A stretch of 26,234 nucleotides of DNA from Promethearchaeota archaeon. Its GTDB lineage: Archaea; Asgardarchaeota; Lokiarchaeia; Sigyniarchaeales; SOKP01. The notes beneath the pieces were generated by a model, which worked only from the letters and a program-made list of their open reading frames with translations, did not search any database and was not told the origin of the DNA. The position numbers and the translations under genes were made by a program. The stretch spans positions 1-26,234 of the forward strand of contig RDOE01000046.1 in the NCBI GenBank assembly GCA_011364975.1, written 5' to 3'. The first letter of the stretch is position 1. Each line of letters opens with the position of its first letter. Below, piece after piece: positions 2,758 through 23,464 of this stretch.

Positions 2758-4017
2758 ATGGGAAAATTAGCAAGAAGAGTCGCAATTGTAGGAGCGGGTA
2801 TGAGTAAATTTGGACAATGGTTTCCTCTTAAACGAAATCCTGATCTTTGGGTTGACGCGTGGATTGATGCTTTAAATAGGGTAGATAATGGAATAGAACC
2901 AAAAGAGATTGATGCGTGTTATGTTGGGAATTATTCTTCAGATCTATTTAACCATCAAGGACATTTAGGACCACAAATGGCAAACTTAGTGGGATTAACT
3001 CCAAAACCAGCTCCAAGATTTGAAGGTGCATGTGCTAGTAGCGGAGTTGCGTTTAGACAAGCAATTTTAGCTATCGCATCAGGAGTACATGATGTAATTA
3101 CAGTATGTGGATGTGAAAGTATGACAGAGGTGTCTACAACATTAGTAACCGATACTTTAGCAACAGCTTCCGATAATATTTTCGAATATCCTGCTGGAGC
3201 TACATTCCCGGGATTATATGCTGCTATTGCCTCTGCTCATTTTCATAAATATGGTACCACACCAGAAGATTTAATGAGAGTGGGGATAAAAAATCATGAA
3301 AATGGTAAAGAAAATCCTTTTGCTCAGATGCAGCAATCTATTAAAGATATTATGGCAAGCAAAATAAAAAAGGCTGAAAGCCAAGGAGGAAGTATTCCCG
3401 AATGGAAAGATGAAATAGATTTTTTAAAAAGTTCCTCAAATCCGATGATTGCCTCACCTTTAAGGTTATTTGATTGCTCATTAGTTACTGACGGTGCTGC
3501 TTGTTTGTTTTTAGCTGCCGAAGATGTTGCCAAGAAATATACCGATACACCAATCTGGATAACCGGTACAGGTCAAGGAAGTGCATCACTCTCTTTACAT
3601 GATCGCAATGATATCACCAGCTTTATTGCAACAAAAGAAGCCGCAAAGCAAGCATATCTAATGGCTGGTTTACAACCAAAAGATATTCAAATAGCTGAAG
3701 TGCATGACTGCTTTACAATTGCTGAAATTTTAGCGATGGAAGATTTAGGTTTTTATGAAAAAGGAAAAGCAGCCGAAGCTATAAAAAATGGAGAATCAAA
3801 AAGAGATGGAATCCTTCCAATAAACACATCAGGGGGTTTAAAATCTAAAGGACATCCCGTAGGAGCAACTGGAGCGGCTATGGCAGTAGAAATATTTAAA
3901 CAGATGAGAGGAATTGCTGAAAGGAATAGACAAGTAAAATTTGATGTTGAAAAAGCTCTTACTCATAACCTTGGGGGGAGTGGTGGAACGTGTGTAGTCA
4001 CGATATATCAAAAATGA
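2758..4017 (+). CDS. Thiolase (acetyl-CoA C-acyltransferase), archaeal/SCP-x type
   Basis: Nucleophile 'EGACASSG', 'EVHDCF', 'KGHPVGATG', C-terminal 'HNLGGSG'; followed directly by a DUF35 gene. Confidence 0.93.
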   Translation: MGKLARRVAIVGAGMSKFGQWFPLKRNPDLWVDAWIDALNRVDNGIEPKEIDACYVGNYSSDLFNHQGHLGPQMANLVGLTPKPAPRFEGACASSGVAFRQAILAIASGVHDVITVCGCESMTEVSTTLVTDTLATASDNIFEYPAGATFPGLYAAIASAHFHKYGTTPEDLMRVGIKNHENGKENPFAQMQQSIKDIMASKIKKAESQGGSIPEWKDEIDFLKSSSNPMIASPLRLFDCSLVTDGAACLFLAAEDVAKKYTDTPIWITGTGQGSASLSLHDRNDITSFIATKEAAKQAYLMAGLQPKDIQIAEVHDCFTIAEILAMEDLGFYEKGKAAEAIKNGESKRDGILPINTSGGLKSKGHPVGATGAAMAVEIFKQMRGIAERNRQVKFDVEKALTHNLGGSGGTCVVTIYQK

Positions 4018-4030
4018 GGTGAAAATGAAA

Positions 4031-4453
4031 ATGTCAGAGCAGAAAGAGATTACGATTCAGAATTATTTGGAATACATTCAAAGTAAAAAATTAATGGGTT
4101 CCAAATGTAAAAAATGTAACGCCCTATATGTACCTCCAAGAAAATTATGCACTGAATGCAATTCTACTGAATTAGAATGGATTGAAATGTCTGGTAAAGG
4201 AAAAATTGCAGCATTCTCATGTATTGGAGTTGGAACAACATTTATGGTCAATAAAGGTTATTCTATGAAGAAGCCCTATTGTTTTTCAGTTATAAAGCTC
4301 AATGAGGGTCCTATGGTTTCTGGACAATTAATAGGTGTTGATGAATCAAAACCAGAGACTATTCTTATTGGAACACCCGTTGGAGTATCATTTATTGAAA
4401 CAGAACTGAAGGGTGGAGAAACTCGAATAGATTTAGGTTTTAAACCTATTTAA
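4031..4453 (+). CDS. DUF35 Zn-ribbon/OB-fold protein, thiolase partner
   Basis: 'CKKC...VPPRKLCTEC' ribbon then OB fold ('SGKGKI', 'KPY...IKLNEGP'). GAGGTGA at 4016-4022 overlaps the thiolase stop and favours ATG 4031; GTG 4019 and ATG 4025 are also in frame. Confidence 0.9.
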   Translation: MSEQKEITIQNYLEYIQSKKLMGSKCKKCNALYVPPRKLCTECNSTELEWIEMSGKGKIAAFSCIGVGTTFMVNKGYSMKKPYCFSVIKLNEGPMVSGQLIGVDESKPETILIGTPVGVSFIETELKGGETRIDLGFKPI

Positions 4454-9898: not shown

Positions 9899-11695
9899 CT
9901 ATAAACTAATTTTAATAATTTTTTTTCGTTTCTGGATTTGAATCATACTAATTATACCTAGAAATATTGCAATTATGTAAAAGAGCGATGGAGAGGATAT
10001 TGTAGGAATTTCTGGTTCTTGATAAATAAACTTGAGGACTAAGGTTGATTGTGTACAGATTATATCTTGATTAAAAGTTTGAAAAATAGCTGAATTATCA
10101 ATACCTCGATTATTAATTGCAAAAGTTATTCTTAGATTCTCATCTAGTAGCCAGATTTGTAAATCATCATTTCTCCCAATTAAAATACCATTTTCAATCG
10201 TTGAATAACCCAAAGGAGGTTCAACAACAACCTGTGCCCCGTATATATCAGAAAAATCAATAAAATCTGTTGTAATAATTTCTCTATCCATTGATCCATC
10301 AGGTATTATAAAAAGAGTGTTATTATACGCCTCATAAACATAAATATTTCCATATACATCTGTTACTCCAACAACTTTGGTGGAATTTTCAAAAGTTGTT
10401 GTTATACGGTAATCCATTGGATTATTTATCGGTATTCGATAAATATTAGACTTATTTTGAGGAGAATTTTCTGTTAGGAGGATAATTTCAGAATTTTTTA
10501 CGTCATAGTGAATGGATTTAGCCCATTCATGAATTTCATTCTCAAACCAATCCTCAAAGGAACCATCCTGATTGACTCGTACAATCGCTACGGTATCATT
10601 TGATAACAAAGCATAAATATTATTATCCACATCTAATATAAGTTTTGAAATAGGAATATTATACGGATTCTTACTAAAATAAGTTGGTCCTGATGCATTT
10701 ATTTTATATATAGTATCTCCTATAACATAAAAAATGTTACCCTCAAATGTTTCTATTACTGTATTAGAGTTTACTGTCGGAGTAAGCAATTCTGCTTCTG
10801 ATTTCCCTGGGTCATAACCTATTAGGCATCCTCCAAAACTTCCTGCTGCAACGAACATTTGTAATTTGGTAGACCAAGTTAATGTACTCATTCCTACCTT
10901 TGACGCCATTAGTAATACAAAAGAATTATTTTCATATTTATAGAAACCTCGGTTGTTACCATCTGCTGTCATGTAATATAACTCATCATTATCATCAACG
11001 TCAATACCGATAACTTCTTGTGTTCCTGGAAGTCCAATTCCGTTTCTTAAGGTTGTTATATCAGAAGTAGTTAAATTCATCATAGAAATCGAACCCAGAT
11101 ATGTTTCAGCGAAATATAGAATACTCTGATTATTATTTAAGATAATTTGACTACATCCTTGGACATTTGGAAGGATTGTTGCAAGGAAATTACCATCAGC
11201 ATCAAACTTTAGAATATCTGTCCCATTATATATTGAACCACAATAGAACGAATCATCTGTTGGATCGAGCGTCATTGTTGTTAAAGGTATTCCATAGGAA
11301 TAATTTTTCAAAAAAGTGAACCCACTTGCAGTTATAGTATAAAATCCGAATTCATTTATTCCTAAAAAACGATTATAAATAGGTTGATAAATAATATCGC
11401 TTAGTGAAATCGATATCGTGACATATTCTGTATGAACACCAAATTCATCCATTTTCATTACAACTAAATTGAGGTTATCAATATAGTATAGATCGTTATT
11501 TTGACCTATACATTTTGGGCCGGGTGGATGAGGAATTTCATATATTGGTAAAACATCCCAGCCTGCTCTAACTTCTCTCATAGGATCAGAAGGATTAGCA
11601 ACCACATTTAGAGTAAAAAGATAGTAGTTAATGGAAAGACCCAATATCAAAATTATAATATAAAATCTGAACTTTTTAAGCAGCATAATTACCAA
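9899..11695 (-). CDS. Secreted multi-blade beta-propeller protein with C-terminal membrane anchor
   Basis: Signal peptide ('KKFRFYIIILILGL...VVA'), recurring blade-like units ('IGIDVDDNDELYY', 'VTDVYGNIYVYE'), many N-x-S/T sequons, C-terminal TM plus basic tail. Start may be ATG 11686. Confidence 0.75.
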   Translation of the reverse strand: MVIMLLKKFRFYIIILILGLSINYYLFTLNVVANPSDPMREVRAGWDVLPIYEIPHPPGPKCIGQNNDLYYIDNLNLVVMKMDEFGVHTEYVTISISLSDIIYQPIYNRFLGINEFGFYTITASGFTFLKNYSYGIPLTTMTLDPTDDSFYCGSIYNGTDILKFDADGNFLATILPNVQGCSQIILNNNQSILYFAETYLGSISMMNLTTSDITTLRNGIGLPGTQEVIGIDVDDNDELYYMTADGNNRGFYKYENNSFVLLMASKVGMSTLTWSTKLQMFVAAGSFGGCLIGYDPGKSEAELLTPTVNSNTVIETFEGNIFYVIGDTIYKINASGPTYFSKNPYNIPISKLILDVDNNIYALLSNDTVAIVRVNQDGSFEDWFENEIHEWAKSIHYDVKNSEIILLTENSPQNKSNIYRIPINNPMDYRITTTFENSTKVVGVTDVYGNIYVYEAYNNTLFIIPDGSMDREIITTDFIDFSDIYGAQVVVEPPLGYSTIENGILIGRNDDLQIWLLDENLRITFAINNRGIDNSAIFQTFNQDIICTQSTLVLKFIYQEPEIPTISSPSLFYIIAIFLGIISMIQIQKRKKIIKISL

Positions 11696-12180: not shown

Positions 12181-14280
12181 TTAGATCAATTGTACTAATT
12201 TTTGTTTTTCAAATTTAGCTGTACTGATCCCAGTTGTATGATCCTTATCCACTATAATTTTGTGGGTATGAATATCGGTAGGAATTGCGGTGTGTGTGAT
12301 TAGAAATATTTGAGAGAAGGTTTGTGATTTGATGAGATGTTTGAGAATCCTCTCTCTACGAGTTTCATCTAAAGCTGCGAGAGGTTCATCCAGAAGCAAA
12401 AAATCAATCTTTGGATTTTTCTTAGGGGAATCCTTTGTTGGTCTTATTTTACTCATTAATTCTGAAATGGATAATCTTAAAGCCATTCCTAAAGCGGTTT
12501 TGTCACCCCCTGAAAGAACTTCAATTGATTCATGCACATTATTAAAATTATCTCTTATTTTAAGAGATAATCCGGTTTTTCTACTGCCAGAAAGATCGAG
12601 TAATAAATCACTGTATTGTCCAGAAGTAAAGTCTTTAATATATTTATTTGTGGTTAAAGCGATATTTTTCACCAATCTTTTAACTACCATATACTCGGTC
12701 ACAAATCTCCGCACATATTCTTTAGCTTTATTCAAATGGTCAAGATCAATTTCTAAATCACCAATTTTTTTTTCCAGTTCTTTCATGCGCTCGATTTCTT
12801 TTTGGAGATTTTCAATTTTTTTTTTATTTGATTCAATATATTCTTTTTTTTCTTCTATATCACGTTTTATAGAAATTAATTCTGTTCCAAACTTCTCTTT
12901 TTCAATAACTAGTTTTTTAATATTATCAGGGCTCGGATCTTTTATTTGAGATTTGATACTTTTAAGTGTTGTATCAAGCTCAGTCTGAATTTGAACAGAT
13001 TCTTTTTGATACTTTAAGATATTTTCATAATCACTTTTTAAATTTTCGATTTGAAATAATTGCTCATTATATTTATCTATTTGAGTTTGAAAACCATCTA
13101 ATTCAATATCAAAATTATCTAATAAACTCATTATAGCTTTTATTTTTTCTTGGTAAATAATAAGATCTTGATTGAATTCTTGAATCATTTCCTCATAATG
13201 TTCTTTAGTTAATACACTTTGGCAGGTAGGGCATTTTATACTTTCATTTTTTGCTTCATTTGTGGAAAATTGAAAGCTCTCTTGCATTTTACTAATTTTG
13301 CTTTGCACATCTTCAATGCGACCTTTGGTTTTTCCTAAGCCTCTTGTTGTTGCTATTTTTTTCTTATCAAGTAAATCCTTTTTGCTTATTAGATTATTTT
13401 TTTCACGAGTAAGTGTATTTACAATTTTAACTACATTTTGTGTCTTTTCGAAATCCTCTAATTTTAAACTAGAATTGCTTAATTTCTTGGAAAAATCTTC
13501 CTTAAATGACGCTAACTTGTCTAACGAATTTTCAATTTGTTTATATAAACTTTCTAATTGACTAATTATATCATTTGAGGGGAAAGATTTAAGCTTACTT
13601 TCGATTTCAGTTGCTTTTTTCGTATTAACCGAAAGTAATTTTTTGAATTGACTTATTTCATTTATCGTTCTTTCAATATCTTCTTCAATTCGTTCAAGAG
13701 GCACTCTGGATTTTTCTAACTGCTCTTTATTAAATCTTTTTGTCTTAGTTTCGCTATCAAGAATATTTAACGCATCATCGATAATATTGAGTCTAAATAA
13801 ATCAATAATCATTTCACGTAATTCTGCCCCTTTCTTATTTGCTAATTCTTCAACCTCCCCTTGTCTTACAAATACAGTACTCAATGCTTGTTCAGCAGAA
13901 ATTTCAAAAAAAGCTTCAATATTGAAATCTTTGATTTCACGGTATTGATTGGATTTATCCATTTTAAACAATTTTACGGATACACTACTCCCTCTTCCCC
14001 ATTTACGATAAAGATAATATTTCTCCTTATCTAATACAAAATATAAATAAATTTCTGCTTTATCTTGTACTCCATAAGTAATAAATGATTCTGCATTACG
14101 CCCTTTAAATAATTTTGGTCCAAAAAAAGCAAAGAGTATTCCTTCTAAAATGGTAGATTTTCCATACGAATTTTTACCACTTATTAAGATTAACCCTTTA
14201 GGTAAATCCTCATTTCCGTGGGGTAATATCAATTGTTTATACCCCATGAAGTTTTTAAATTGAATCTTAGTTATTTGCAT
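12181..14280 (-). CDS. rad50: DNA double-strand break repair ATPase Rad50 (SMC/SbcC family)
   Basis: Walker A 'GKNSYGKS', Q-loop 'VRQGE', central zinc hook 'CPTC' in coiled coil, signature 'LSGGDK', Walker B 'LLLDEP', H-loop 'LITH'. Confidence 0.95.
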   Translation of the reverse strand: MQITKIQFKNFMGYKQLILPHGNEDLPKGLILISGKNSYGKSTILEGILFAFFGPKLFKGRNAESFITYGVQDKAEIYLYFVLDKEKYYLYRKWGRGSSVSVKLFKMDKSNQYREIKDFNIEAFFEISAEQALSTVFVRQGEVEELANKKGAELREMIIDLFRLNIIDDALNILDSETKTKRFNKEQLEKSRVPLERIEEDIERTINEISQFKKLLSVNTKKATEIESKLKSFPSNDIISQLESLYKQIENSLDKLASFKEDFSKKLSNSSLKLEDFEKTQNVVKIVNTLTREKNNLISKKDLLDKKKIATTRGLGKTKGRIEDVQSKISKMQESFQFSTNEAKNESIKCPTCQSVLTKEHYEEMIQEFNQDLIIYQEKIKAIMSLLDNFDIELDGFQTQIDKYNEQLFQIENLKSDYENILKYQKESVQIQTELDTTLKSIKSQIKDPSPDNIKKLVIEKEKFGTELISIKRDIEEKKEYIESNKKKIENLQKEIERMKELEKKIGDLEIDLDHLNKAKEYVRRFVTEYMVVKRLVKNIALTTNKYIKDFTSGQYSDLLLDLSGSRKTGLSLKIRDNFNNVHESIEVLSGGDKTALGMALRLSISELMSKIRPTKDSPKKNPKIDFLLLDEPLAALDETRRERILKHLIKSQTFSQIFLITHTAIPTDIHTHKIIVDKDHTTGISTAKFEKQKLVQLI

Positions 14281-14287
14281 TATTATT

Positions 14288-15598
14288 CTACTCCTCTGGC
14301 TGCTTCTCCATTACCCTAAGAGCTTTTTTTATTGCCTGCATACCAAAATTAGTGAGTTTATTTAGATCAAAGTTAGTTTTATCCTCAGTTAGTTTTTCAT
14401 TCACAAAATTTCTAAATTCCTCATCAGGCTTTTCAAGAATAAAATCTTCAATTATACCAGCACTGATGTCGTCTTCTAGTTGCTCTGAAATATCAGAGAT
14501 ATTCCATATTATTTGTAGTATGTTATATTTTTCAGGTTGAGAAAAGATTTCTCGTCTGATTCTGGACATTAACTCATTTATCTGCCAATTTTTTTCAAAT
14601 GTAATTTCCCCACTAAAATTAAACTTTAATCTTGCTGAAGTTTTATAATCAAAACCTTCTTTAGTAATACATGCAGTAAGTTCATTCATTATCAATGTTT
14701 CTAAATCCTTAGAGGTTTGACTGGGATTTGTATCGATTGATACAACTTCAAACCTTCTTTTTAATAAATTATTAATAAACACCTTGTTTACATTTAAATT
14801 TTTACTCTTATCATCGAGATCAACTATCAGATATCCTTGATTCTCATATACTTCTTTAAAATTCATTGGTAAGAGACTTCCCGTATAAAAGTGATTTTTT
14901 GAAACAGCCTTTAACCCATGTTCATGTCCTAAAGCTACATAATCATATCCAAAGTCATCAGAATATACTTTATTGTGCAATGTATTATCACCATTAGAAC
15001 CATGAGCTAAGGCAATGTTTATGTAATTATCATTTTTTGGAGGTCTTTGTTGCTCTATCCAATTATCATAAGCATTTGCATAGGACTCTTGTGCATTAAA
15101 TTCAAAATAAGGAAAAAGGTAAAATCTAACTTTTTTAACCTTAAACTCTAAACTCAAAGGAGAATTAGATTTAATAGCATTTATTAAATCCCTTTCTTTG
15201 AAATAGTATAAATTAGGATATATTTCTTTTTCAAAATGAGATTCAAAAGGAGTATAATCATATCCTTTAAACACACCATGATTACCTTCAATATATATGA
15301 AGGGAACTTTTTCATTTGTTTGTTTAAAAAATAGATTTAAACCTTCTTTTAAAGTTCTACGAGCAGGTTCTGGTGGAGGGTAAGAACTATTCTCTGAAGG
15401 AAGATGGAACATATCACCGCAATGAACAACGAAGTCTAGATCTTTAAGGTTAGAAATCTCATCGATTACCCTTAGAAAAATATCATAAATTTCTTGTTCA
15501 TACGGTTTAGAATAATTTTCAATAGCCCATTTGTTTATTACTCCCCTTCTAGCTCTATATCCTAGATGAGAGTCTGCCATATGGATAATTTTAACCAA
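14288..15598 (-). CDS. mre11: DNA repair nuclease Mre11 (SbcD-like metallophosphoesterase)
   Basis: 'HMADSHLG', 'CGDMFH', 'EGNHG', 'AHG', 'DYVALGHEH', 'YTGSL'; 7 nt from the rad50 start, with GAGGAG in its last codons. Confidence 0.93.
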   Translation of the reverse strand: MVKIIHMADSHLGYRARRGVINKWAIENYSKPYEQEIYDIFLRVIDEISNLKDLDFVVHCGDMFHLPSENSSYPPPEPARRTLKEGLNLFFKQTNEKVPFIYIEGNHGVFKGYDYTPFESHFEKEIYPNLYYFKERDLINAIKSNSPLSLEFKVKKVRFYLFPYFEFNAQESYANAYDNWIEQQRPPKNDNYINIALAHGSNGDNTLHNKVYSDDFGYDYVALGHEHGLKAVSKNHFYTGSLLPMNFKEVYENQGYLIVDLDDKSKNLNVNKVFINNLLKRRFEVVSIDTNPSQTSKDLETLIMNELTACITKEGFDYKTSARLKFNFSGEITFEKNWQINELMSRIRREIFSQPEKYNILQIIWNISDISEQLEDDISAGIIEDFILEKPDEEFRNFVNEKLTEDKTNFDLNKLTNFGMQAIKKALRVMEKQPEE

Positions 15599-15642
15599 AT
15601 TTCTTTACTCCATTTAACGATTTGTAATAAATATTTAAGATT

Positions 15643-16842
15643 TTATTCACCTAACACCTTTTTCCTCCATTCTTGCGCATAATTTTTTGTTTTTTTATTG
15701 AATTGTAACTCTAAAAAAGCACTTTCTAATTTATTATATTCTGAGACGAGTAATGTGCTAGCTTCATGCGCCCCACTTAAACTCAAGGGATATCCTCTTG
15801 GAGAATAGGGTATTAAACTTTTCAAAGCATAGATGGCATCTTTTGTATCTAAATAGTCACAAACATCGAATCTTAAAGCTGAACTAGATTGATTCAATTT
15901 TGCAATATAAGCTTTACTTTTAGTATATATTGAGAGATCTGGTAATTCTACTAAGAAATTACTATCATTTAATATCTCCGCCCATATAGGTAATATAAAA
16001 TTACCCTGAGCATCTCTTAGACGACAAGTTTTTGAAAAACTGTAATACTTTATATTAAAAGTCTCAATAAATTTGTAAAAGAATTCAGTAAAGGCGCTTG
16101 GTGGAAAAATGTGTTGCCGAAACATTTGAATTCCATCACCAAGAAAAACTACATTTTCATTTTTTCCCCAGTTACTTACATCTTTAATTCTAATAAGGGA
16201 TTTTAAAATTTCGTCAGCTGTTCTTATTCTGTCTATTACATGCCCTATCGTTGGATAGTAAAAATCATGTGCATTAATGTGTTCTTCTATTTTTGTTTTA
16301 TATGTCGATTTGTACCAATTAACTAATTTATCTACTTTAATTTTTAAATTGTTTATATAGAAATCTCTTTTAATAGTTTTTATAAAATTCTCTATTACCG
16401 TTTGGTATATTATAAGTTTATGTTCATTATCTTCAATATAAGTACTAATCGGTTTGTACATAATCTTTTCTATATTGTATTTGCCCTTCTCAAAAATAAT
16501 TTGACATTCACCAAATTTAAAAGATGCTAATTTGGCATATGTACCACTTAAGACGTTTGAACTCTCATCAAAGCCGATTATTTTATAACCATCATCAATA
16601 TAATCGATTAATTCATCTTTAATAATGTGATAAGGCATATCTATAAAGATGGAATTAGTATTTTTAAGACTTTCATCATTGTCAAATTTATCTGTTTCTA
16701 ATTCAATCTTTTCTTCTTCTGTCCATTTTACTCTTCGTTCTTGAATGTAATCTTTAAATTTTTTAACTTCTTCGTCAATTGATTTTTCTGGTCTTTCTTC
16801 AAAAGATTTTTCCAGCGATATTAATTCAAAGTCAAATGAAAT
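15643..16842 (-). CDS. nurA: NurA 5'-3' nuclease (divergent)
   Basis: 'IIGFDES', 'VFLGDGI', 'GYPLSLSGAHEAS' (NurA GYP..L..AH motif); lies between herA and mre11. The frame is open 68 codons upstream of ATG 16638, to ATT 16842. Confidence 0.82.
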   Translation of the reverse strand: MSFDFELISLEKSFEERPEKSIDEEVKKFKDYIQERRVKWTEEEKIELETDKFDNDESLKNTNSIFIDMPYHIIKDELIDYIDDGYKIIGFDESSNVLSGTYAKLASFKFGECQIIFEKGKYNIEKIMYKPISTYIEDNEHKLIIYQTVIENFIKTIKRDFYINNLKIKVDKLVNWYKSTYKTKIEEHINAHDFYYPTIGHVIDRIRTADEILKSLIRIKDVSNWGKNENVVFLGDGIQMFRQHIFPPSAFTEFFYKFIETFNIKYYSFSKTCRLRDAQGNFILPIWAEILNDSNFLVELPDLSIYTKSKAYIAKLNQSSSALRFDVCDYLDTKDAIYALKSLIPYSPRGYPLSLSGAHEASTLLVSEYNKLESAFLELQFNKKTKNYAQEWRKKVLGE

Positions 16843-16870
16843 TTACATCAACCTCATGTTTATAATAATT

Positions 16871-18613
16871 TCAAGGTAGTGCTGTTGGTGGAGGAGAAAT
16901 TCCTTGCGATTTAGCCTTTTTTGCGAAATTTTCATAATATTTTTTAGAAATTTGTTCAAAATAATCATCATATAAGGGAATTCGAAGTTTCTGAAAGTTA
17001 GTTAGCCATATACCCGAAATTAATGCGATTCCCCTTGTTCCCGTGAGTGATTCTAAATCATAAAGTTGAATCCCTCCTCCTAAAGTTTTAGCAGCAACCG
17101 ACTTCTCCTTCTCTGATCTTAATGGTAAATTAATAACGGTGTTCATGTTCGATAAAATAGTATCATCAATAGGAGAATATTGTTGAGAAATAACTTCTAA
17201 TGCCAAATTAAACTTTCGCCCTTGACGTGATATATCTTTAAACACATTATTGTATTTCATCATTTCTGGGCGTAAAATACTAGGGGCTTCTTCTATAGTA
17301 AATATTATTATTGGTAAATCTGATGGATCTTTTACGATATTTCCTGTTTTAAGATACAAATCTTTTATATTTTTTTTATAGTTCTGAAAAAATCCCTTTG
17401 GTAAGGTTTGTTTCAACTTTTGCTCTAATGTGGTAATATCTGTAGACGATTTCAGCGTTTTCCTAATATCAAATAACGTTCTCGCTAAAACACCATTAAA
17501 AAGAAATTGCTCTAGATCAGATATCATAGATGCATTAAAAATAATGACTCCTCCCCTTTCCAGCTTGTTAACAATATCAGCTAATTTACTCGAAGCATTT
17601 GATTGAAACATATCTGAGTATTCTAACCAATGCATTCTTCTTCTTATAGCTGCCATCGTTTTTTCATCATGACCACCAGGAGGTAGATATCCATCTAATA
17701 ATAAGTTTTCAATATAATTCTCAGGATCGCTTCTATATGCAGAAAAGATGGCTCCAACTTGCAGATCATTAAATGTACCTGTAGCAAATAAATCTTCAGG
17801 CTTAATTTCTTGATAGTTGATAATACATGGTTCTGCTAAGCTTTTAATCTCAGAGGGAGGAATTCCTTTATTAGGATAAAGGTAGAACCATGAACCAAAT
17901 AATTGGCTATTAAAATTCACTGCTTTGCAAATATCATATACTCCGAAATTCCTGCATCCGAGAGCATATTCATCATGCATATCAATTGCAAGCATAGAGA
18001 TTTTAGTTCCCTTATTACTCAAAATTACGTTAGCATTATGTTGCAATAAACCATCAATAAAAACCTGATTTAAATTTGACTTTCCCATACCTGTAGCCCC
18101 TGCAATAAAAAAATGGTACATTAAGTATTTATAAGGAAAATTAACTTGGACTTTACGCTGGGAAGCTAAGTAACCCATGAAGATACCATCTGGAGGGAAA
18201 ATATGCGCGATATACTTATAAATATCATTTTGATCATCAGAAATTTTCATTAAATGTGGTTTAATTATTTGCTTTTCCATCAAATCTTCAATTTCAAAAA
18301 AGACATTTGTAATATATTCTTCTTCTTTTGAACTTTTTTTATTTTTTTTAATAAAGATTATCGGTCGTCCTTGGATTACGTATTCTAATTCTGTTTCTAA
18401 TTCTGCTTTAATATAGTCTGTAATTTGAACATTTTTTAATTTCTGACGAGTGATAATATAATCTGCGATGGTTTGTTCATTAAGTATTTGAGTAATAATT
18501 ATATAGATATTCTCATCACTTTCTGCTTCAAGCTTAATAAATCCATGCAGATGTACGTAATTCTTATAAAAAATCTCTATTGTACTTTCTATAGAATTGA
18601 TTTTTATAATCAT
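16871..18613 (-). CDS. herA: HerA/FtsK-family ATPase (bipolar helicase/translocase HerA)
   Basis: 'HFFIAGATGMGKS', 'IDMHDEY', Walker B 'FTIEEAP', arginine finger 'RQGRKF', 'ISQ', 'ILSNMNT'; first gene of the repair operon. Confidence 0.9.
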   Translation of the reverse strand: MIIKINSIESTIEIFYKNYVHLHGFIKLEAESDENIYIIITQILNEQTIADYIITRQKLKNVQITDYIKAELETELEYVIQGRPIIFIKKNKKSSKEEEYITNVFFEIEDLMEKQIIKPHLMKISDDQNDIYKYIAHIFPPDGIFMGYLASQRKVQVNFPYKYLMYHFFIAGATGMGKSNLNQVFIDGLLQHNANVILSNKGTKISMLAIDMHDEYALGCRNFGVYDICKAVNFNSQLFGSWFYLYPNKGIPPSEIKSLAEPCIINYQEIKPEDLFATGTFNDLQVGAIFSAYRSDPENYIENLLLDGYLPPGGHDEKTMAAIRRRMHWLEYSDMFQSNASSKLADIVNKLERGGVIIFNASMISDLEQFLFNGVLARTLFDIRKTLKSSTDITTLEQKLKQTLPKGFFQNYKKNIKDLYLKTGNIVKDPSDLPIIIFTIEEAPSILRPEMMKYNNVFKDISRQGRKFNLALEVISQQYSPIDDTILSNMNTVINLPLRSEKEKSVAAKTLGGGIQLYDLESLTGTRGIALISGIWLTNFQKLRIPLYDDYFEQISKKYYENFAKKAKSQGISPPPTALP

Positions 18614-20757: not shown

Positions 20758-21126
20758 TTAGAATTGATATTCTCTATTCCTTAGTTTTGAGACAAGATGA
20801 CCTCTCGAAAGTAATTGTATCCCAAATTGAGAGGAATAATCTCTTGAGAAATCAGTTGCGATATTACATATCATAATTCCTCCTTCTATATCTGGTATAT
20901 CAATACAGGCTTTATGAAGTTGACGCAACTGAGTGATTGAAATCTCACGCTTCCAATCACGGATAAAAACCCCGTAATTCCCGTATTTTTCATCCTTAAT
21001 TATTGCATTGAAGGTCCACGTTTTTCCCGATTGACCCCGTAATTTTTGTGGACCGATAACGAAATCGTATTTTTCAGAAAAAACTCTTTGGGCTAATTCT
21101 GTTAAACCTTTCTCTCCTAAAGACAT
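20758..21126 (-). CDS. Mrr-like restriction-endonuclease-fold protein, catalytically degenerate
   Basis: 'LRGQSGKTWTFNAII', 'GVFIRDWKREISITQLRQL', 'GGIMIC', 'GIQLLSRGHL' follow the Mrr_cat layout. Confidence 0.6.
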   Translation of the reverse strand: MSLGEKGLTELAQRVFSEKYDFVIGPQKLRGQSGKTWTFNAIIKDEKYGNYGVFIRDWKREISITQLRQLHKACIDIPDIEGGIMICNIATDFSRDYSSQFGIQLLSRGHLVSKLRNREYQF

Positions 21127-21313: not shown

Positions 21314-22165
21314 TTAAACACTTAATTTAGTGAAATTAATAAGTTTAAGTAAGGTATACTCTCCTTCTGGGTCTTGACCATTTTGTAATATGAATTTATA
21401 AAGTGAATTGGCTATAAAATTAAAAAGTTTATTAATTATAGGTTCGCAAATGGAATTACACTCAAAATAATTATCTGGAAGAAAGTTACATCTCGGATTA
21501 TATGTTATACAAAACCTTTTCATTTGAAGAGACATTCCATCAGCCAGTAAAGTATCTAAATAATCCCACTTATCAATAATTCCTGCCAATTCACTGGGTT
21601 TAATACTTTTTAGTTTATTTAATAAATTAAAACAACCATCCTCTTCCTTAATTTGACGAGATGACTTTACACGGGTATTAATTTTTTTTAATTCATCTTT
21701 AGCTTCAAGTTTACAAAGAAATACGTATTTTTGCAAAATTTTTTCAGCTTTAATTGCGTCCGATGTATCTTTTATTGTCCAACCAGACATCTTCTTACAA
21801 CGTATTCTCTCATCAGTTAAATTTGAAAACCCTGTTGGATATATCCAACATTGAGGTGGCTTTATTCCAGAATTATGAACTGAACATCCATTAATCTTCC
21901 TATCAAAGAGGAAACATTTTCCGGTTATTTCATTGAATCTTAAATGAAATGCAAAATTATCACTTCTATTAAAATCCTCTATACTTGCATAACCTCTTTT
22001 TACATATTCTTCCGCAAGTACTTTTGGGACATCGATTTTAATTGAACAACAATCTCCCTTACAATTTTTAGGATCTGTACAATTAGGCCCCTCAATTGCG
22101 GATTTCATTAATGAATTGAACTGAGTAATAAGTTGCCAGAAAAGTAAATTCTCTCGATTATGCAA
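21314..22165 (-). CDS. YkgJ/CxxCxxCC-family Cys-cluster (Zn/Fe-binding) protein with extra C-terminal Cys cluster
   Basis: 'C..PKNCKGDCC', 'CFLFD....CSVH...KPPQCWIYP', later 'C......C.......ECNSIC'. Confidence 0.7.
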   Translation of the reverse strand: MHNRENLLFWQLITQFNSLMKSAIEGPNCTDPKNCKGDCCSIKIDVPKVLAEEYVKRGYASIEDFNRSDNFAFHLRFNEITGKCFLFDRKINGCSVHNSGIKPPQCWIYPTGFSNLTDERIRCKKMSGWTIKDTSDAIKAEKILQKYVFLCKLEAKDELKKINTRVKSSRQIKEEDGCFNLLNKLKSIKPSELAGIIDKWDYLDTLLADGMSLQMKRFCITYNPRCNFLPDNYFECNSICEPIINKLFNFIANSLYKFILQNGQDPEGEYTLLKLINFTKLSV

Positions 22166-22299: not shown

Positions 22300-23292
22300 G
22301 TGCCAGACTTAATCATTATCGATATCACGGAAAATGAAAAAATACTGTTAGACGAATCATTAAATAAAAAAGAAATTAAAGGTAGTGGCAGGATCACCAT
22401 AAAAAACCCATCGAAAGAAAGTAAATTATGGAATTTAGGATGTGACTTAAAAGAAACGGTGCATACAACAATTAATACAAGAGAGATTAATATTGGAACC
22501 CTAAATCCAAGTCAAGAGTATATAATGAATTATGATATACAGAATCTGAAAGAACCCTCTTTAAAAATTATTGAAAGCTTTTATTCTAATAAAGAACTTA
22601 TAGATAAAGTAACTAATATCTCTCTTTTTAAACCAGATACCGACTATAAGTTACAGCTTAATTTAATCAATCTTCGTAAACATCCAATATCAAATGTAAA
22701 TATTACAAGAAATTTACCAGAAATTTTTCAAGATATTGAAGTAAAAACCCCTACTATAGGATTTGCTAGTATAAATGTGAATGATGGAATAAAAATCTTA
22801 AATTGGGATATTACTATATTAGAACCCGAACAAAAGGCTGAACTAGAAATTACTTTAAAGGTAAAATTTACTAATATAGAATCTTTTTCTCTTGGTTCAT
22901 TAAAGGGGACGTATTTAATTAATAACTTCAAATTAACGCTATTAAATCCCGAAATAAGAGGTTTAACGGATTCAATTTCTCGAATTCATCGTACTGAGAC
23001 CTCTCAACCTGATATATGGAATTGCAGTGTGGATTTTATTAATAAATCTAACTTTCAAATAAGAATTGAAGAAGTAAAAGTATCTCAAGAAGTAGAATCA
23101 GGAGGGAAAATAGTAGTATCTCAGACTCCAAATCGCTTACTTAATCCAGAAGAATCCTGGAATTATGATTTTACGGTTGAGAGCGAAAATGTTCCAGAAT
23201 TAAATTCAACAGTTGAATTTACACCTTTATATGCTGTTATAACGAGAGTTAAGGGAGAGATCGTAAAAGAATCTAGGATTTATTCCAGATAA
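22300..23292 (+). CDS. Cytoplasmic all-beta protein, candidate mu-homology-domain (adaptin/coatomer) relative
   Basis: No signal peptide or TM; alternating beta pattern; repeated 'W/I...L.P.(Q/E)' strands; segments resemble the AP mu C-terminal domain (see findings). The ORF is solid, the function tentative. Confidence 0.5.
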   Translation: MPDLIIIDITENEKILLDESLNKKEIKGSGRITIKNPSKESKLWNLGCDLKETVHTTINTREINIGTLNPSQEYIMNYDIQNLKEPSLKIIESFYSNKELIDKVTNISLFKPDTDYKLQLNLINLRKHPISNVNITRNLPEIFQDIEVKTPTIGFASINVNDGIKILNWDITILEPEQKAELEITLKVKFTNIESFSLGSLKGTYLINNFKLTLLNPEIRGLTDSISRIHRTETSQPDIWNCSVDFINKSNFQIRIEEVKVSQEVESGGKIVVSQTPNRLLNPEESWNYDFTVESENVPELNSTVEFTPLYAVITRVKGEIVKESRIYSR

Positions 23293-23464
23293 AGTGTTGA
23301 AATAAATAAACCCTATTCTTTAATTCTCTTCCTCATGTATATTTTTTATCTTCTATGAAATCACAATAATTATTAAACTGAAGTTCATAAATAATTCTAG
23401 ACGTTAGTTTTGGATTTAATTTTAAATCGATTATACCAGAAATATTTCGAATAAATAATTTAGT

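Follow-up and report, generated by a model that had tools for sequence, protein, structure and literature searches.

The DNA analysed in the present study is contig RDOE01000046.1 of assembly GCA_011364975.1 from a Promethearchaeota archaeon, a stretch of 26,234 nucleotides that is called the window hereafter. At 22300..23292 on the plus strand, it carries an open reading frame (ORF) of 330 amino acids (aa) with a GTG start codon and a TAA stop codon at 23290-23292. An earlier note, made from the letters of the sequence, had read this gene as encoding a cytoplasmic protein with a mu-homology domain (MHD), the cargo-binding fold of the adaptor and coatomer medium subunits. Our results indicated that the 330-aa protein is probably a truncated member of an Asgard family of MHD-like proteins that are usually about 700 aa long. 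The translation of 22300..23292 contained every peptide that the note had quoted, including IIIDITENEKILLDESLNKKEIKGSGRITIK (residues 5-35), SNVNITRNLP (beginning at residue 131), ILNWDITILEPEQKAELEITL (residues 166-186) and LKGTYLINNFKLTLL (residues 201-215). In an alignment of the close relatives (A1), the start position was common to the relatives and was marked by M[PST]DLI[IV][IV]D; the GTG start was considered sound because the relatives begin at the same position. Reading of the 330-aa sequence revealed no signal peptide, hydrophobic N-terminus or membrane segment, which agreed with the cytoplasmic location given in the note. The protein starts at its first strand and has no longin domain, as had also been stated.

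Based on the predicted structure described below, the protein could be divided into consecutive beta units. Residues 1-100 (22300..22599, plus strand) would form a first beta-sandwich unit with six predicted strands, assigned by DSSP from the model, and would correspond to the N-terminal part of MHD subdomain A; this unit carries D8, E11, G30, K35, N36, W44, Y78 and E92. The second beta-sandwich unit (residues 113-215; 22636..22944, plus strand), in which N124, G154 and W169 are invariant, would correspond to MHD subdomain B and also to a DUF11-type immunoglobulin-like (Ig-like) domain. The following residues 216-250 (22945..23049, plus strand) formed the best-conserved stretch of the family in three alignments (A1, A2 and A4), with the pattern NPE.RGLTDS.SGI.R.E.S.PG.W.C...F.N.S.F and a peak of conservation at residues 216-253; the strands completing the MHD-like part presumably lie here. 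The remaining residues 251-330 (23050..23289, plus strand) formed an extra C-terminal beta unit of about seven strands (DSSP strands 254-329), which is absent from eukaryotic MHDs. In addition, two weak Ig-like Pfam matches were found at residues 231-297 (E 0.04-0.05). By extrapolation from the alignment ends in the relatives P0183 and P0223, the profile of PF00928 (Adap_comp_sub), the Pfam family of the MHD, would end at about residues 242-248, and about 80 residues would lie beyond it. The motif 'L.P.(Q/E)', whose recurrence the note had pointed out, occurred three times in the translation, as L68-P70-Q72, L174-P176-Q178 and L281-P283-E285, once in each beta-sandwich unit. The extra Ig-like module of the note found its counterpart in the residues beyond the PF00928 end; the architecture it described is not the norm of the family, since the protein is a truncated version of the form of about 700 aa.

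An AlphaFold2 model of the 330-aa protein was built on alignment A1 (26 sequences). The model showed a predicted local distance difference test score (pLDDT) of 82.4 and a predicted template-modelling score (pTM) of 0.69; it contained about 24 strands and was free of helices, and its sole poor stretch was a loop at residues 102-109. The Foldseek comparison with the PDB revealed solely MHDs among the 50 best matches listed, including AP-3 mu3A (4ikn, E 4e-10), AP-2 mu2, AP-1 mu1, AP-4 mu4 and COPI delta (4o8q, 5nzu). Across these 50 matches, the E-values lay between 4e-10 and 2.8e-8, and the template-modelling (TM) scores were 0.38-0.71 when normalised by the target and up to 0.53 when normalised by the query. 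Alignments of 236-253 columns gave a root-mean-square deviation (rmsd) of 4.0-5.7 Å. Since the TM score by query was near 0.5, both sandwiches would superpose at once, and we read the model as placing residues 1 to about 250 on an entire MHD, with both subdomains together. The structure comparison that the note had proposed therefore retrieved the AP mu subunits and the delta-COP MHDs, in line with the fold it had suggested. Arrestin/Vps26-like and tandem-CARDB readings were considered as well, and neither appeared among the 50 matches listed.

We then modelled a long form of the family, P0028, which is 57% identical to the 330-aa protein, on alignment A4 (44 sequences). This model had a pLDDT of 87.6 and contained the module at residues 1-330, followed by beta domains at 333-480 and 483-590, a disordered segment at 595-619 and four helices at 622-700. 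Foldseek again retrieved MHDs with it, at TM scores by target of 0.36-0.61. Thus, the predicted structures of both models showed two beta-sandwich subdomains in the MHD arrangement.

The link to PF00928 was also followed by sequence through the relatives, using the gathering scores of 31.6 bits for PF00928 and 24.6 bits for DUF11 (PF01345). Five relatives matched PF00928 above the cut-off, namely P0137 (36.7 bits), P0182 (40.9), P0183 (40.7), P0151 (34.9) and P0213 (34.4), and phmmer or HMMER linked these five to the 330-aa protein at E 7.2e-89 to 1.1e-11. Transitivity through these above-cut-off homologues would place the protein in PF00928. The match ran over profile positions 12-236 of 259 in P0182 and 18-233 in P0194. 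Among the 120 longer relatives listed, PF00928 was flagged in 8, at residues of about 47-216, which lie inside the part that aligns with the 330-aa protein; these matches covered profile positions 69-227, and P0137 was the only one of the 8 above the cut-off. PF00928 was further matched at E<=0.01 by half of the 26 diverse distant representatives (13, with 4 above the cut-off) and at E<=0.1 by 15/44 long forms of the A4 set, which had been deliberately enriched for flagged members.

Searches of all PDB sequences with family profiles pointed to the same group of proteins. With A2, a profile of 36 diverse family members, the best match was AP-3 mu (E 9.9e-4; profile 105-214 on mu3 277-388), followed by the gamma-adaptin ear (E 0.002, through the C-terminal DUF11 domain), AP-1 mu (0.11) and AP-2 mu (0.56). 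In the HMMER alignment of A2 with AP-3 mu, the family 'lkWkidsL' was placed on 'LAWDVGKI' of mu3, and 'ikvtyeven..s.l' on LNIQFKIQQLAISGLK. This alignment reproduced the register that the note had given for its second and third segments of mu likeness, and for these two segments the resemblance to mu subunits goes beyond chance. The profile A3, made from the subfamily with N-terminal extensions, matched AP-3 mu at E 4.9e-3 and AP-2 mu at E about 0.5-1.6. With language-model features of residues 1-250, and with DUF11 clusters excluded, the nearest Atlas clusters were three eukaryotic Adap_comp_sub/muHD clusters (0.77-0.79), which serve as a lead only. The 330-aa protein matched no NCBIfam family, and a single-protein phmmer search of the PDB sequences gave nothing relevant, the top match being a hyaluronidase at E 0.049.

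The first segment of mu likeness fared differently. Its gapless register was indeed chosen by HMMER when A3 was aligned with mu2, with D8 on the Asp of 'FLDV', E11 on 'LE' and G30 on 'SG'; at -0.7 bits, this stretch is not significant alone. The arginine of 'SGR', which the note had counted as a match, turned out to be a coincidence, because R31 occurs in 1/25 close relatives and Lys in 14. The proposed equivalence of D8 with the aspartate of the Yxx-Phi tyrosine pocket was only suggestive: D8 is kept in 24/25 close relatives and in 18/36 members of the wider family. A similar drop was seen for K35 (23/25 and 14/36), and N36, N124, W169, W240 and P299 were invariant in all 36. The pocket of mu2 is made of Asp, Lys, Trp and Arg. 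In the non-significant register, the acidic and basic residues of the close relatives would sit at the Asp of mu2 'FLD' and at the end of 'SGRVVMK'. By extrapolation from the ends of the PF00928 alignments, W240 may stand where mu2 has the pocket tryptophan.

When compared with known systems, the 330-aa protein most resembled the MHDs of the AP-1 to AP-4 mu subunits and of COPI delta (4ikn, 1bw8, 4en2, 3l81, 4o8q), which were the best structural matches, likewise consist of two beta-sandwich subdomains and likewise keep the Trp of '..W.I..' in subdomain B (W169 in the 330-aa protein). Unlike these proteins, with which its identity is 8-13%, it has about 80 extra C-terminal residues as a third unit, and the pocket residues are not kept across the wider Asgard family. 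The medium subunits of the AP and COPI complexes carry an N-terminal longin domain before the MHD, and the 330-aa protein does not. Longin-less MHDs that serve as stand-alone interaction domains, tied to other modules by a flexible linker, are known from the muniscins (FCHo1/2, SGIP1 and Syp1; PF10291, muHD) and the stonins. The likeness to muniscins comprised a weak muHD match in one relative (P0200, E 0.0048) and the presence of muHD-bearing clusters among the Atlas leads, and it was weaker than the likeness to AP mu. In muniscins, moreover, the MHD is C-terminal, whereas it is N-terminal in the Asgard family, and no F-BAR or other partner domain is shared.

In a word-indexed search, 26 relatives were close to the 330-aa protein in length, and another 127 were longer, almost all of them 698-711 aa long. 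The relatives from this search that bear a name were all Asgard archaea, belonging to Promethearchaeota, Lokiarchaeota, Thor-, Hod-, Hermod- and Odinarchaeota. When phmmer was run exhaustively against 1.84 billion cluster representatives, 144 matched at E<=1e-3 and 78 at E<=1e-10. In these matches, the module of about 325 residues either opens proteins of about 600-720 aa or follows an extension of 100-170 aa. The latter arrangement is found in a sister subfamily (P0182-P0223); its N-terminal extensions of 100-170 residues matched no Pfam family, longin (Clat_adaptor_s) included. A scan of one genome per species with A1 confirmed 89 places; 80 were retained, and 80/80 were metagenome-assembled genomes (MAGs) of Asgard archaea. 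As far as sampled, the family is confined to Asgard MAGs, in a sample made up of fairly close relatives (42-58% identity for the genome loci).

The 80 loci also defined the usual form of the protein. The matching ORF measured 695-740 aa in 76 of them; three were shorter, two of these at contig ends, and the remaining one (L054) encoded 317 aa. In the usual form of about 700 aa, the MHD-like module is followed by additional Ig-like domains, then by a hinge and lastly by a helical bundle. The hinge, which is disordered and about 25 residues long, and the conserved bundle of four helices (about 595-700 of P0028; 9834-10103 in L001) are both lacking in the 330-aa protein. In five long forms, Pfam recognised no family in this C-terminal bundle. 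Adaptin-like domains fused to parts of ESCRT-I have been reported in Asgard archaea, according to the portions available of a preprint (Liu et al. 2020) and of a later article (Makarova et al. 2024). Because of these fusions, the Vps28 C-terminal domain was tried as a candidate for the bundle, and the Pfam search of the five long forms gave it no support.

The 330-aa protein is a truncated positional orthologue of the protein of about 700 aa, and its C-terminal half is missing. Gene order, written as numbered neighbours with their strands, was '... 2- 1- target+ (11-) 13+ 6+ 10+ 3- 4+' in the related loci and '19- 2- 1- target+ 13+ 10+ 3-' in the window; the 330-aa gene therefore sits at the orthologous position. 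Upstream and divergent from it lie a CxxCxxCC-domain gene (21314..22165, minus strand; 283 aa), which matched PF03692 below threshold at E 2.2e-4, and a gene for a 122-aa protein without a Pfam family (20758-21126, minus strand). Counting the window, these neighbours were kept in 75/81 and 71/81 loci, respectively, and the CxxCxxCC-domain gene is given as context only. Downstream, a spacer of 172 bp (23293..23464) separates the stop codon from a URO-D-like gene. In tblastn searches of the window with the C-terminal halves of five long forms, nothing better than E 0.8 was obtained, and no match fell in the spacer, which holds no remnant of the missing half.

Shorter forms also occurred elsewhere in the family. 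Two relatives, P0001 (99% identical) and P0002 (73%), are likewise 330 aa long, and the C-termini of nine further near-length proteins lie only a few residues from this end point, the domain boundary past which the long forms continue. A quick maximum-likelihood tree was made from 57 rows; to account for its 11 short forms, parsimony required 5 changes, with at least 3 changes on well-supported branches. Each short-form group adjoins long forms in the tree, and one group has four diverged members. These results suggested that the truncation arose at least three times; DNA was seen for the window gene and L054, and a contig-end artefact is possible for each of the other short forms. We interpret the short forms as the outcome of losses that recurred, were tolerated and removed all that lies beyond a domain boundary.

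The second subdomain of the module showed a double nature. At the place equivalent to residues 113-191, DUF11 matched above the cut-off in P0182 (43.7 bits), P0196 (56.3) and P0219 (60.8), the last two without any PF00928 match. Of the long forms, 44/44 had a DUF11 match. The DUF11 and PF00928 matches overlapped; in P0182, DUF11 at 222-311 lies inside PF00928 at 108-325. Furthermore, the C-terminal DUF11 domain of the long forms (about 507-575) matched module positions 114-186 at independent E-values of 1e-3 to 2e-7 in the rows listed, and 78/115 short secondary matches started within these positions. From the overlap and the paralogy together, it follows that the unit equivalent to MHD subdomain B, the second subdomain of the module, is a DUF11-type Ig domain with a paralogue near the C-terminus of the long forms. 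This C-terminal DUF11 domain also gave weak matches to adaptin appendages, with AP3B1_C in 15/44 and Alpha_adaptinC2 in 2/44, besides the gamma ear found with A2. DUF11 and MHD are not alternatives in the 330-aa protein, the first two units of which are predicted to be arranged as in an MHD. The scenario of independent tandem DUF11 domains, which the note had named as its refutation, was accordingly half true: the second subdomain is of the DUF11 type, and the first two units nonetheless stand in the MHD arrangement in the predicted structure.

Several results weigh against an MHD-like protein and are considered here together with a rival reading, namely that the gene encodes a cytoplasmic chain of DUF11/CARDB-type Ig domains whose MHD likeness is generic or convergent, in which case an adaptor function would not follow. 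In Pfam, the 330-aa protein itself had no PF00928 match even at E<=10, and its best match was DUF11 (residues 113-191, E 3.2e-4), although at 21.5 bits this stayed below the cut-off of 24.6 that its relatives pass. PF00928 was found at E<=0.1 in just 1/26 near-length relatives (A1 members). Most PF00928 matches were below the cut-off and centred on profile positions of about 120-230, the stretch that DUF11 also matches, and for this reason the signal may partly be a generic likeness of Ig domains. Searched against the PDB, A1 gave no MHD and only PrgA (E 0.18), and A4 performed more weakly than A2, with the gamma ear at 0.071 and mu3 only at 0.27. For language-model features of the whole protein, the nearest Atlas clusters (0.94) were archaeal DUF11 proteins, including some of Thermoplasmatota. 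When the Foldseek alignments ran through all of about 340 columns, the rmsd rose to 9-22 Å and the TM score did not improve; therefore, the last 80-90 residues do not superpose on the MHD. The interleaved topology of an MHD has subdomain B inserted in A, with C-terminal strands that go back to A and pair with strand 1. Mean-field direct coupling analysis of 287 family sequences (effective number of sequences, Neff, about 136), aimed at a pairing of strand 1 with residues 239-247 or 311-323, showed no block enrichment even within domains and was uninformative rather than negative. Among the genes of the 26-kb window, none was recognised as encoding an adaptin, a sigma/longin, clathrin-like or ESCRT protein or a small GTPase, so the partners that the note had proposed to look for did not appear, and none of the 25 most widespread neighbour clusters was identified as an adaptin, sigma/longin, clathrin or small-GTPase gene, where only the clusters with a window member had been named by Pfam. 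An Ig chain would also account for the long forms being strings of five beta domains, all 44 of which matched DUF11, for the paralogy of unit B with their C-terminal DUF11 domain, for the recurrence of 'L.P.(Q/E)' in each unit and for the matches of the P0028 model to PrgB, integrin alpha and ciliary multi-Ig chains at E of about 1e-10 to 1e-12. Those multi-Ig matches, however, had TM scores of only 0.04-0.21 on either normalisation, whereas the MHD matches reached 0.55-0.71 by target, and no non-MHD occurred among the 50 Foldseek matches listed, although the PDB is rich in Ig and DUF11-like domains. The PF00928 matches of P0182 and P0194 span both subdomains, and the family profiles found AP mu and the gamma-adaptin ear in the PDB, not surface Ig repeats. 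Unlike DUF11/CARDB repeat arrays, the 330-aa protein lacks a signal peptide or anchor, matches DUF11 in one of its three units, and has a two-unit arrangement that Foldseek matched to MHDs. We consequently regard a plain Ig chain as unlikely.

The short length of the gene raised another explanation, that it is a functionless, decaying, pseudogene-like stump left after a 3' deletion in a gene for about 700 aa. More than half of the ancestral protein is gone at the orthologous position, and among the 80 genome loci the short state was seen only in L054; both points speak for decay. A stump would hardly explain, however, why the ORF is intact, begins at the family start and ends within a few residues of a domain boundary, nor why all family-invariant residues are kept and the 330-aa model folds with confidence. 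Moreover, its relatives include proteins sharing 99% and 73% identity with it, the latter also 330 aa long, and the short forms ending at this boundary fall into three or more separate groups, one of which comprises four diverged members. Decay of the gene was therefore judged highly improbable, and a truncated member of the MHD-like family remained the preferred reading.

According to this preferred reading, the gene would encode a soluble, cytoplasmic, all-beta protein of an Asgard archaeon of the Lokiarchaeia/Promethearchaeota type. Residues 1 to about 250 would form the MHD-like module, with two sandwiches mutually arranged as in AP mu and COPI delta, and residues of about 251-330 would add a third small beta unit. 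The long form would further contain two Ig-like domains, one of them similar to DUF11 and adaptin appendages, a hinge of about 25 residues and a four-helix bundle. In the lineage of the window, everything after the module would have been cleanly lost at a domain boundary. Eukaryotic MHDs of AP mu, delta-COP, muniscins and stonins bind short linear motifs. By analogy, the Asgard module might serve in protein-protein interactions as a platform on which such motifs of its partners are bound, a function that we propose only tentatively. If so, the hinge and the helical bundle of the long form would tether the module elsewhere, and the short form would serve as a free-standing or competing binding module.

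Members of this family have already been catalogued. In Table S3 of Eme et al. 2023 (Nature 618:992), PF00928 (Adap_comp_sub) occurs 44 times; in part 1 of 400, its entries include proteins from Lokiarchaeales, Helarchaeales, Hermodarchaeia and Jordarchaeia with lengths of about 580-760 aa. When compared by eye, these entries, including one of 705 aa from Lokiarchaeales, showed the motif order of A1, namely D.TE..., G.G....N.S...R.WN and W.C...F.N.S.F. This agreed with the remark in the earlier note that adaptor-like proteins had been reported in Asgard archaea. Unlike the listed entries, the window copy is a 330-aa truncated orthologue without a PF00928 match. The legend of Extended Data Fig. 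3 in the same article describes the domains as 'not fused to each other', and the accessible portion of the article contains no mention of a DUF11 subdomain, extra domains, conserved synteny or recurrent truncation. Similar proteins in the rows seen of Table S3 carry acidic low-complexity inserts. The available part of a 2026 structural-clustering preprint mentions coat and adaptor eukaryotic signature proteins (ESPs) and does not mention an MHD-like domain. In a literature search that excluded subscription papers and the Greek-letter spelling of mu, no analysis of the family, of the DUF11 link or of the short forms was found. Judged from these portions, the family is thus catalogued among the Adap_comp_sub candidates of Eme et al. 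2023 and uncharacterised, and the window copy is a new truncated member. The fold named in the note was essentially right, and its novelty had been suitably qualified there. The usual architecture of about 700 aa, the truncation at a syntenic position, its at least three origins and the DUF11-type second subdomain are new.

Adaptor and coat proteins define the vesicle traffic of eukaryotes, and on the question of where their parts came from, the present family offers one of the few archaeal candidates for the cargo-binding MHD. One speculative scenario, to which we give little credence at present, is that the eukaryotic MHD descends from an archaeal DUF11-type Ig array, with the Asgard family as an intermediate in which subdomain B can still be recognised as DUF11 and has an adaptin-appendage-like paralogue within the protein. 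The motif site, represented by D8, K35 and W240 in the Lokiarchaeial orthologues, would then have been present already without longin, sigma or large adaptins, and the short forms would show that the module is an autonomous unit, a minimal archaeal selector of cargo or partners. If the homology is true, a domain specific to eukaryotes would be connected with an Ig-like repeat that is common in prokaryotes; should it fail, an entry in the ESP catalogues needs a caveat. In practice, the family offers a target for structure determination and partner hunting, owing to its MHD-like fold, DUF11 subdomain and conserved position and to the natural, near-minimal versions of 330 aa.

The rest of the window contained a block for the repair of DNA double-strand breaks at 12181-18613 on the minus strand. 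This block comprises a Rad50-like SMC ATPase (12181-14280), a Mre11-like phosphoesterase (14288-15598) and a HerA-like helicase (16871-18613). Between the Mre11-like and HerA-like genes lies an ORF of 331 aa without a Pfam family (15643-16638, minus strand), which presumably occupies the place where NurA usually sits. Another ORF, of 598 aa (9899-11695, minus strand), had no Pfam match at E<=0.1, and no tRNAs were found in the window. Housekeeping genes of the window encode a MaoC dehydratase, an MFS transporter, TrmO, a thiolase with a ChsH2-like partner, an M28 peptidase, a methyltransferase, a diacylglycerol (DAG)-kinase-like protein, a signal peptidase, Alba, an aminotransferase, the URO-D-like protein, a DJ-1/PfpI protein and PCMT. 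The thiolase gene is followed by the gene for the ChsH2-like zinc-ribbon/OB-fold protein with overlapping stop and start codons (2758-4453, plus strand). The G+C content of the window peaked at 0.384 at 3001-4000, compared with about 0.29.

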